Shown: piece after piece, positions 1-773 of the stretch
Numbering within the stretch: the stretch's first letter is position 1
Layout of the letters: each line of letters starts with the position of its first letter
Assembly (NCBI RefSeq): GCF_003334385.1
Contig: NZ_QOWN01000116.1
DNA length: 1,326 bases
Source: Escherichia coli
Lineage (GTDB): Bacteria > Pseudomonadota > Gammaproteobacteria > Enterobacterales > Enterobacteriaceae
Direction: 5' to 3' (one strand)
Made by a program: the position numbers and the translations under genes
Notes under the pieces: generated by a model
Told to the model about the DNA's origin: nothing
Databases searched by the model: none
What the model saw: the letters and a program-made list of their open reading frames with translations, nothing else

Positions 1-773
1 GACGATGCGGCAGCCGTTTTTGAGGATTCTGCGCTGGTTTCCGACGCTTTCGCGTTCGTTTCGGATGTCTTCGCTGCGGAAGCAGACCTCGCTGCTGTGC
101 TGGCCTGTTCAGTGGCTTCGCCAGCCTTCGTTGTGGCTGTTGAAGCGGATGATGCGGCGCTTTCTGCCGATTTTCCGGCGGCGGTGGCACTGGCTGAGGC
201 CTGCCCGGCACTTGTTGACGCGGCACTGGCAGACGACGCAGCCGCTGTTTTTGAGCCTGCCGCAGCTGAGGCGCTCTGTCCCGCTGCCGTCTCAGAAGAC
301 CTGGCGTTCGTCTCGGACGTTTTTGCCGCCTTCGCGGAATTTGCTGCCGCCGTTGCCGAGGAAGCTGCGCTACTGGCGCTCGAGGATGCGTTCGTTTCTG
401 ATGATTTTGCCGCCTCTTTTGAAGCCGACGCATCCCGGGCTGAGATGGCAGCTTCTGACGCTTTCGTAGTCGCGGTGGATGCAGAAGTGGCTGCTGATTG
501 TTGTGACGCTGCAGCATTCGTTTCAGACGTTTTCGCGGCACTGGCACTGGTAGCTGCCGCGCTTTTTGAGGACTCTGCAGCGGCAGCACTTTTTAATGCT
601 TCAGTGGCCTTTGCTGATGCCGTTCCTGCGCTGGAAGACGCTGACTGAGCCGACGACGCGGCCTGTCCGGCTGACGAGCTGGCTGCGCGTGCTGAGTCTG
701 CAGCATCAGTCGCATGGGTTGCCGCCTCACGGGCAGATGTGCCGGCATCGCTGGCTGACTTCTTTGCGGCTGC
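1..773 (-). repeat. In-frame 42-nt (14-codon) tandem periodicity inside stf, encoding an Ala/Ser/Thr-rich shaft (about 18 units to the window edge)
   Basis: With the protein in 14-residue blocks from residue 133, positions 2, 6, 9 and 13 of each block are Ala in about 58 of 68 cases by my manual count (e.g. DAGTSAREAATHAT, DAADSARAASSSAG, QAASSAQSASSSAG, SAASSATAAANSAK, AAASSASAASTSAG, SAASSASTATTKAG). The motif AAK(T/S)SETN recurs at residues 203, 245, 273 and 357, spaced by multiples of 14. Confidence 0.75.

Follow-up and report, generated by a model that had tools for sequence, protein, structure and literature searches.

The locus: a side tail fibre gene behind lom

The window, by which we mean the whole stretch of 1,326 nucleotides analysed here, contains the 3' end of an Ail/Lom gene and the 5' part of the side tail fibre gene stf, both encoded on the minus strand (Table 1). 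The full stf gene of the source genome has 990 codons. Its identification as the stf of a lambdoid prophage, already made in the original prediction, is well founded. The Pfam family phage_tail_N (PF08400) matches residues 1-134, that is down to plus-strand position 744, with E = 2.5e-72, and residues 1-94 match residues 1-94 of the lambda 'Tail fiber protein' in PDB entries 9e7m/9mgh with E = 2e-52. AF2 places beta strands across residues 3-77. Over its full length the window matches the chromosome of E. coli SCU-104 (NZ_CP053284.1) with 100% identity; there, stf is annotated as 'prophage tail fiber N-terminal domain-containing protein' and stands in the order gpJ, Ail/Lom, stf, tail fiber assembly protein (tfa), the position of a side tail fibre gene in a lambdoid prophage. 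For residues 135-381 the Pfam scan returned no family match, and the NCBIfam scan gave only a negligible match to an SMC coiled coil.

Table 1. Features of the window and of the encoded Stf protein (window positions, except for the last row, which refers to L001).
Feature	Position	Strand	Stf residues	Basis or remark
stf, 5' part, side tail fibre	3..1145	-		ATG at 1145, 381 codons, open at the left window end
Collar domain, fibre-to-tail attachment	864..1145	-	1-94	PDB match and AF2 beta strands
Putative proximal coiled-coil shaft, heptad x-A-x-x-S-A-x	3..851	-	~99-381	Autocorrelation, column counts, AF2
First shaft heptads, V-A-R-N-A-S and V-A-Q-N-T-A	774-809	-	113-124	Val at a, Asn at d
Word TA[ST][TA]KA[TSG]EA	597-623	-	175	
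Word TA[ST][TA]KA[TSG]EA	450-476	-	224	
Word TA[ST][TA]KA[TSG]EA	114-140	-	336	
Word SKSAAATSAS	540..569	-	193-202	Also at residues 298 and 375
Motif copy 1, AAKTSETN	516-539	-	203-210	Regex scan of the translation
Motif copy 2, AAKSSETN	390-413	-	245-252	Regex scan; junction partner in the P0086 allele
Motif copy 3, AAKTSETN	306-329	-	273-280	Regex scan; homology of the mEp460/Ayreon/L029 type stops right after it
Motif copy 4, AAKTSETN	54-77	-	357-364	Regex scan of the translation
Block A, SAATSASTATTKASEAAISARDASASKEAAKSSETN	390..497	-	217-252	Pairs with block B at lag 112
Block B, SAASSASTATTKAGEATEQASTAARSASAAKTSETN	54..161	-	329-364	Pairs with block A at lag 112
Shine-Dalgarno-like run GGGGGG of stf	1149-1154	-		Adjoins the T-run
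T-run TTTTTT	1156-1161	-		After the terminator-like hairpin
Strong terminator-like hairpin	1162-1183	-		Directly 3' of lom
C-terminal end of Ail/Lom outer-membrane protein	1210-1326	-		Translation (...GYKF*)
Antisense ORF of 183 codons, opposite the shaft	97-648	+		
Second antisense ORF, opposite the shaft	5-469	+		
Full stf gene, L001	4173-7145	-		

Both the 3' end of lom and the terminator fall inside the window. The hairpin, AGCCCGCC-GGTTCA-GGCGGGCT, stops about 17 nt short of the stf start codon, and a terminator at the lom-stf junction is annotated in some phage records. Since the hairpin lies right before the ATG, stf would be expressed only if the late transcript reads through it or is antiterminated. 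The two open reading frames on the opposite strand would yield low-complexity products rich in Ala, Asp and Phe; they are most likely by-products of a periodic coding strand rich in GCN and TCN codons and not genes. Downstream of the window, at residues ~466-590 of the full protein, stand three near-identical copies of a unit of about 40 residues (KGIVQLSSATNSTSESQAATPKAVKAAYDLANGKYTAQDATTAQ). Their number varies among alleles, and the precomputed Pfam matches of homologues to Phage_fiber_2 (PF03406) may correspond to this unit.

An alanine/serine heptad shaft with charged heptads

The protein beyond the collar is built on a period of seven residues. Identity autocorrelation over residues 116-381 peaks at every multiple of 7 and only there (z ~4-9), and in the full gene the pattern continues without a phase break from residue ~99 to ~455, over some 50 heptads. 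Column a is Ala in 37 of 38 heptads (97%), column d is Ser in 31 of 38 (82%) and column e is Ala in 26 of 38; together, Ala or Ser account for 63% of the shaft residues. The register can be set because the shaft opens with the classical core residues of RFELMVE, EVARNAS and AVAQNTA, with F or V at a and M or N at d, so that a is column 1 and d is column 4. Among these first heptads, those at residues 113-124 presumably resemble so-called N@d layers. In 2009, Hartmann and colleagues reportedly described N@d layers of the type [ILV]xxNTxx as anion-binding sites within the core of trimeric coiled coils.

Selection acts on these columns at the level of the protein. Across 74 distinct alleles, amino-acid heterozygosity is 0.009-0.016 at a, d and e versus 0.07-0.11 in the other columns, and synonymous diversity is similar in the two sets. 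Opposite charges occur at i,i+3 far more often than chance predicts, in 19 cases against 5.0 +/- 2.0 expected, a number reached in 0 of 3000 shuffles. This pairing agrees with the structure prediction, in which the beta domain is followed by helix at residues 101-249, 258-364 and 372-380. The AF2 run was made for a monomer, reached a pLDDT of 65 (mostly 60-80 in the helix) and folds back on itself; the two fold-back breaks are regarded as monomer artefacts. A long, unbroken run of heptads whose a and d positions are conserved, combined with predicted alpha-helix, is what a parallel alpha-helical coiled coil is expected to show.

A structural counterpart is available in lambda gpStf, whose proximal coiled coil has been described by Wang et al. 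(Sci Adv 2025, PMC12617516) and whose residues 1-94 are covered by PDB 9e7m/9mgh. In the model of Ur-lambda gpStf, obtained from low-resolution cryo-EM/ET plus AlphaFold3, residues 1-91 are the collar and 92-101 a linker; residues 102-393 form the proximal coiled coil, a trimeric bundle, which is followed by a hinge and a distal domain. The rod is visible by cryo-ET in lambda, and Ur-lambda side fibres are trimers binding the surface receptor OmpC (PMC12617516). By analogy with this model, the present shaft is presumably the proximal trimeric coiled coil of a lambda-type Stf, in which three chains would run together in one thin rod.

Within this frame, the recurrence of AAK(T/S)SETN reported in the original prediction would have a structural meaning. 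A regex scan of the translation found the four copies exactly where they had been placed. When the shaft is set out in sevens it reads x-A-x-x-S-A-x, and hence the motif is one heptad plus one residue, with A-A-K-T/S-S-E-T-N at positions g-a-b-c-d-e-f-g; its K..E is one instance of the opposite-charge pair at i,i+3. After the collar (residues 1-94) the chain enters an uninterrupted heptad repeat whose a, d and e positions are mostly Ala, Ser and Ala; the motif keeps the small a/d core and adds a pair of Lys at b and Glu at e, with Asn at the next g. Such charged heptads may stabilise the helices and help to fix the register of a nearly degenerate Ala/Ser rod. The Lys and Glu of the motif are invariant across the 74 alleles in all three copies scored (copies 1-3), though column b is otherwise the most variable.

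The fourfold recurrence is not what composition alone would give. With a shuffle null that keeps the residue composition of each heptad column, AAKxSETN obtains a surprise score of 9.3 (-log10 Poisson tail) against a null maximum of 7.6, and thus lies above all 2000 shuffles; K, E, T and N, which are rare residues here, carry the signal. The plain count of repeated 8-mers of any word shows no significance against shuffles. It is uninformative because low-complexity Ala/Ser words recur by chance, and an information-weighted statistic was therefore used instead.

These tests also bear on the idea of a disordered, low-complexity Ala/Ser/Thr linker in which the recurrence of the motif is a compositional artefact. 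The high share of Ala or Ser, the missing Pfam family over residues 135-381 and the abundance of generic repeated 8-mers in shuffles would suit such a linker. They have to be set against a heptad phase that is strict over ~340 residues and kept across alleles, a constraint that is column-specific, the pairing of charges, the AF2 helix, the rod seen by cryo-ET in lambda (PMC12617516) and a motif that exceeds column-preserving shuffles. Periodicity and shuffle tests refute the linker, which we find hardly credible, and we continue with the coiled-coil shaft.

The heptad also accounts for the spacing of the copies, which are 42, 28 and 84 residues apart: they fall on multiples of 21 nt because the register must be kept. 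The proposed spacing at multiples of 42 nt holds in so far as all three spacings here are multiples of 14 residues, but the true unit is 21 nt (7 residues). A super-period of 14 residues (42 nt) was considered and rejected, as even and odd multiples of 7 are equally strong in the autocorrelation and recurrent words also stand 49 or 77 residues apart; a distance of 49 residues separates AAKxSETN copies in homologues as well. That all spacings are even is a coincidence of the present allele.

Repetition in the protein and in the DNA

The 24-nt copies of the motif (n=4) differ at 8 sites, seven of them synonymous third positions and one the T/S replacement, so that the differences are mostly synonymous, as had been noted. 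How far the copies have diverged can be judged from the gene's own codon use. Where residues are identical, 20 of 51 codon pairs are identical between copies compared with 17.7 expected, which puts codon identity at chance, and 37 in-phase lags from 7 to 259 residues gave no clear or consistent excess of codon matching (largest z ~2). The repeat is therefore old or convergent and held by selection on the peptide: the copies are kept by purifying selection on the protein, and their synonymous sites have drifted to randomness.

The same holds for repeats of any kind within the shaft DNA. As a null we swapped synonymous codons among equal residues, using gene-internal codon use. Under this permutation 13.0 pairs of repeated 10-mers are expected and 13 are found, the longest exact repeat in 1020 nt is 13 nt against 12.7, and the numbers of repeated 8-, 10-, 12- and 15-mers do not differ from the null (P ~0.4-0.7). 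Tandem Repeats Finder detected no array in the shaft. A DNA repeat was also sought with exact and gapless searches, and the candidates obtained together with Tandem Repeats Finder, weak families of 60-86% identity and one trivial 15-nt array, were rejected; similarity beyond what the protein requires, the mark of a tandem or dispersed DNA repeat family, was not found. Stf genes thus look repetitive as protein and not as DNA because of the heptad rule together with in-phase changes by whole heptads.

From these values it also follows how to read the diversity of codons. The original prediction argued that the weakened DNA identity would reduce replication slippage, and one could go on to propose that synonymous sites have been selected to differ, which would suppress slippage and deletion. 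Codon use for Ala and Ser in the shaft is indeed unusually even, and the DNA repeats are short. Yet the repeat content is that of random synonymous recodings, and length changes between short words, whether deletions or insertions, do occur in nature. No sign of selection for codon divergence was seen in these comparisons; neutral saturation suffices, since synonymous permutations give the same repeat content, and adaptive diversification appears improbable to us.

A different question is whether the copies descend from internal duplications. The best information-weighted in-phase block pairs blocks A and B, which end in copies 2 and 4, at an offset of 112 residues (P ~0.001). This recurrence had been pointed out before; it stands by the information-weighted score but not by raw identity, since 24 identical residues of 36 are not unusual alone (P = 0.18). 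Copies 2 and 4 with their significant 36-residue block fit an old duplication, as judged from the sequence; copies 1 and 3 may equally well have converged on a favoured heptad. The earlier notion of old duplications maintained at the protein level is thus borne out as regards maintenance and randomised synonymous sites, and fits copies 2 and 4.

In a stronger form, all four copies would be relics of internal DNA duplications that recent gene conversion or unequal crossing-over has kept alike. The similarity of the 36-residue block would speak for this, as would one allele class that differs in length by 112 residues and has its junction at copies 2/4. Codon identity at chance, no in-phase lag with an excess of synonymous matching and a longest exact repeat no longer than in random recodings largely refute it for recent events, and we give it little probability. 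The protein-level heptad rule remains the preferred reading.

Further words recur in the rod in the same phase, so that AAK(T/S)SETN is accompanied by TAxxKAxEA, SKxAAAxSAS and ASASK[DE]. TA[ST][TA]KA[TSG]EA occurs a fourth time at residue 413, beyond the window, with spacings of 49, 112 and 77 residues, and carries Lys at a d position and Glu three residues on. The DNA of SKSAAATSAS together with the two following Ala codons contains a 12-nt exact repeat, GCCAGTGCCGCG.

Shaft length among alleles and exchange in heptad phase

Comparison with 80 homologous viral contigs and 120 database proteins reveals that the shaft varies in length and keeps its phase. The conserved MVEEVARN anchor stands 186, 228, 235, 326 or 340 residues away from the AEDIA hinge, all of these distances being 4 mod 7, and the heptad phase is identical in all complete homologous genes with an intact start codon. 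Correspondingly, the Ala/Ser run ends at 322, 329, 343, 420 or 434. Steps of 2, 15, 16 or 22 heptads, all in phase, separate the natural alleles, and the number of AAKxSETN copies ranges from 1 to 4, so that repeat number as well as shaft length varies among homologues.

Junctions were mapped by DNA comparison with the present allele, relative to which all lengths are given. One allele (L043) is without 14 residues and has its junction at a microhomology of 5-6 nt. Another (L077) is without 105 residues, with the junction at the 12-nt exact repeat in SKxAAAxSAS-AA. Two further types are shorter by the same 105 residues: in L039 the junction lies ~12 codons downstream of that of L077, and in the lambda-like L049/L073 it lies ~100 codons downstream. 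The P0086 class is without 112 residues and is joined at the 5' edge of motif copy 2/4, and the P0108 class is without 154 residues, with a junction at a 16/17-nt patch encoding ASASK[DE]. Three of the mapped junctions therefore sit at the recurrent words listed above. In L029, L060, mEp460 and Ayreon the gene is collinear with the present allele through motif copy 3; beyond it follows a different module, rich in xAKxSET heptads.

The motif itself counts as one of several such words. The 112 residues by which the P0086 class differs match the offset between blocks A and B exactly, and the position of the junction suggests that this class may have arisen by motif-to-motif exchange, although exact microhomology against the present allele amounts to only ~2 nt. 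Break points at motif copies amount to ~3 of 8 within 3 residues, which by a rough hand estimate is no significant enrichment (P ~0.1), and most length-changing junctions involve recurrent words other than the motif, or microhomologies of 5-6 nt. The prediction that homeologous recombination leads to variation in fibre length therefore stands for the whole-heptad alleles and for the P0086 junction, but not for the motif as the main site. In-phase length alleles with mapped junctions show that variation in fibre length by exchange at short homeologous words is real. Partners for such exchange exist, given that complete E. coli genomes contain roughly 15,000 matching places in all, with a median of 2 and a maximum of 14 in each genome that has any.

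Taken together, we assign a probability of roughly 0.8 to the reading that the region is the proximal coiled-coil shaft of Stf, that the motif is a recurring charged heptad, and that exchanges change the shaft by whole heptads. Mechanistically, rare illegitimate or homeologous exchanges between in-phase words would delete or add whole heptads and could thereby generate the natural alleles whose shafts are shorter by 2, 15, 16 or 22 heptads.

The repeated occurrence of one length step deserves separate mention. At residues 200-304 versus 305-409 of L001, three distinct junctions give the same difference of 105 residues (15 heptads) in L077, L039, L049 and L073. Of these two 105-residue segments of the long allele, the short alleles carry either the first or the second, and L039 has the look of a recombinant between the two short types. 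The equal offsets suggest either alternative cassettes of one length or selection that favours discrete shaft lengths. One might go further and regard the shaft as a series of interchangeable cassettes with a fixed number of heptads (residues 200-304/305-409, single or in tandem), in which charged heptads serve as register staples in the assembly of the trimer and as preferred exchange points and the reach of the fibre is tuned in quantised steps under selection. The two 15-heptad segments look unrelated. We consider this extended version unlikely and retain the simpler reading, in which exchanges between in-phase words change the shaft by whole heptads.

Several of these elements are familiar from lambda. 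The collar is nearly identical, the gene order lom-stf-tfa and the Ala/Ser heptad shaft are shared, DNA identity to lambda is ~87% across window positions 237-1289, and lambda-like alleles (L049 class) also have AAKTSETN. They differ in that their anchor-to-hinge distance is 235 residues compared with 340 here, which makes the present shaft 15 heptads longer. In addition, the present protein has 990 aa versus ~767 aa in the lambda-like alleles sampled (L049 class), it differs in its distal part, and it carries three GIVQLSSATNSTSE repeats that are Phage_fiber_2-like.

Likewise, mosaicism is a known feature of such genes. Phage tail-fibre genes exchange at short shared motifs, as Sandmeier (1994 Mol Microbiol 12:343) reportedly described, and De Paepe et al. 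(2014, PMC3945230) demonstrated experimentally that lambda stf recombines with the stf genes of Rac and Qin by relaxed Red-beta-dependent recombination. The present stf alleles are mosaic in the same sense, with break points inside the shaft. What differs here is an intragenic, phase-preserving change in length by whole heptads at patches of 5-17 nt, of which we found no description in the literature searched. The present stf belongs, with its longer shaft, to a known family whose coiled-coil structure and principle of mosaic exchange had been described before. The contribution made here is descriptive and consists of the rules for a/d/e and for charge pairing, the quantisation of natural shaft lengths in whole heptads and the mapped junctions. 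The rule for the Stf shaft combines an Ala-a/Ser-d/Ala-e heptad with pairing of charges at i,i+3 and defines no new kind of system. It can inform the engineering of chimeric lambda side fibres, which should be joined in heptad phase and preferably at recurrent words.

Comparable heptads appear in other fibres. Two unrelated fibre proteins of solved structure, the L-shaped tail fibre of T5-like type (8hqz_d) and a fibre protein with an SGNH esterase (9cod_A), have similar Ala/Ser heptads, with weak matches limited to the shaft, and contain AKISETNA and AAKVSETNA in an A-x-x-S-A-type context; their attachment and distal domains are other than those of the present Stf. Since a PDB sequence search with the shaft alone gave matches at E = 0.06-0.15 only, this likeness may reflect common design and not demonstrable homology. 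The shaft segment is also common to several PHROG tail-fibre families.
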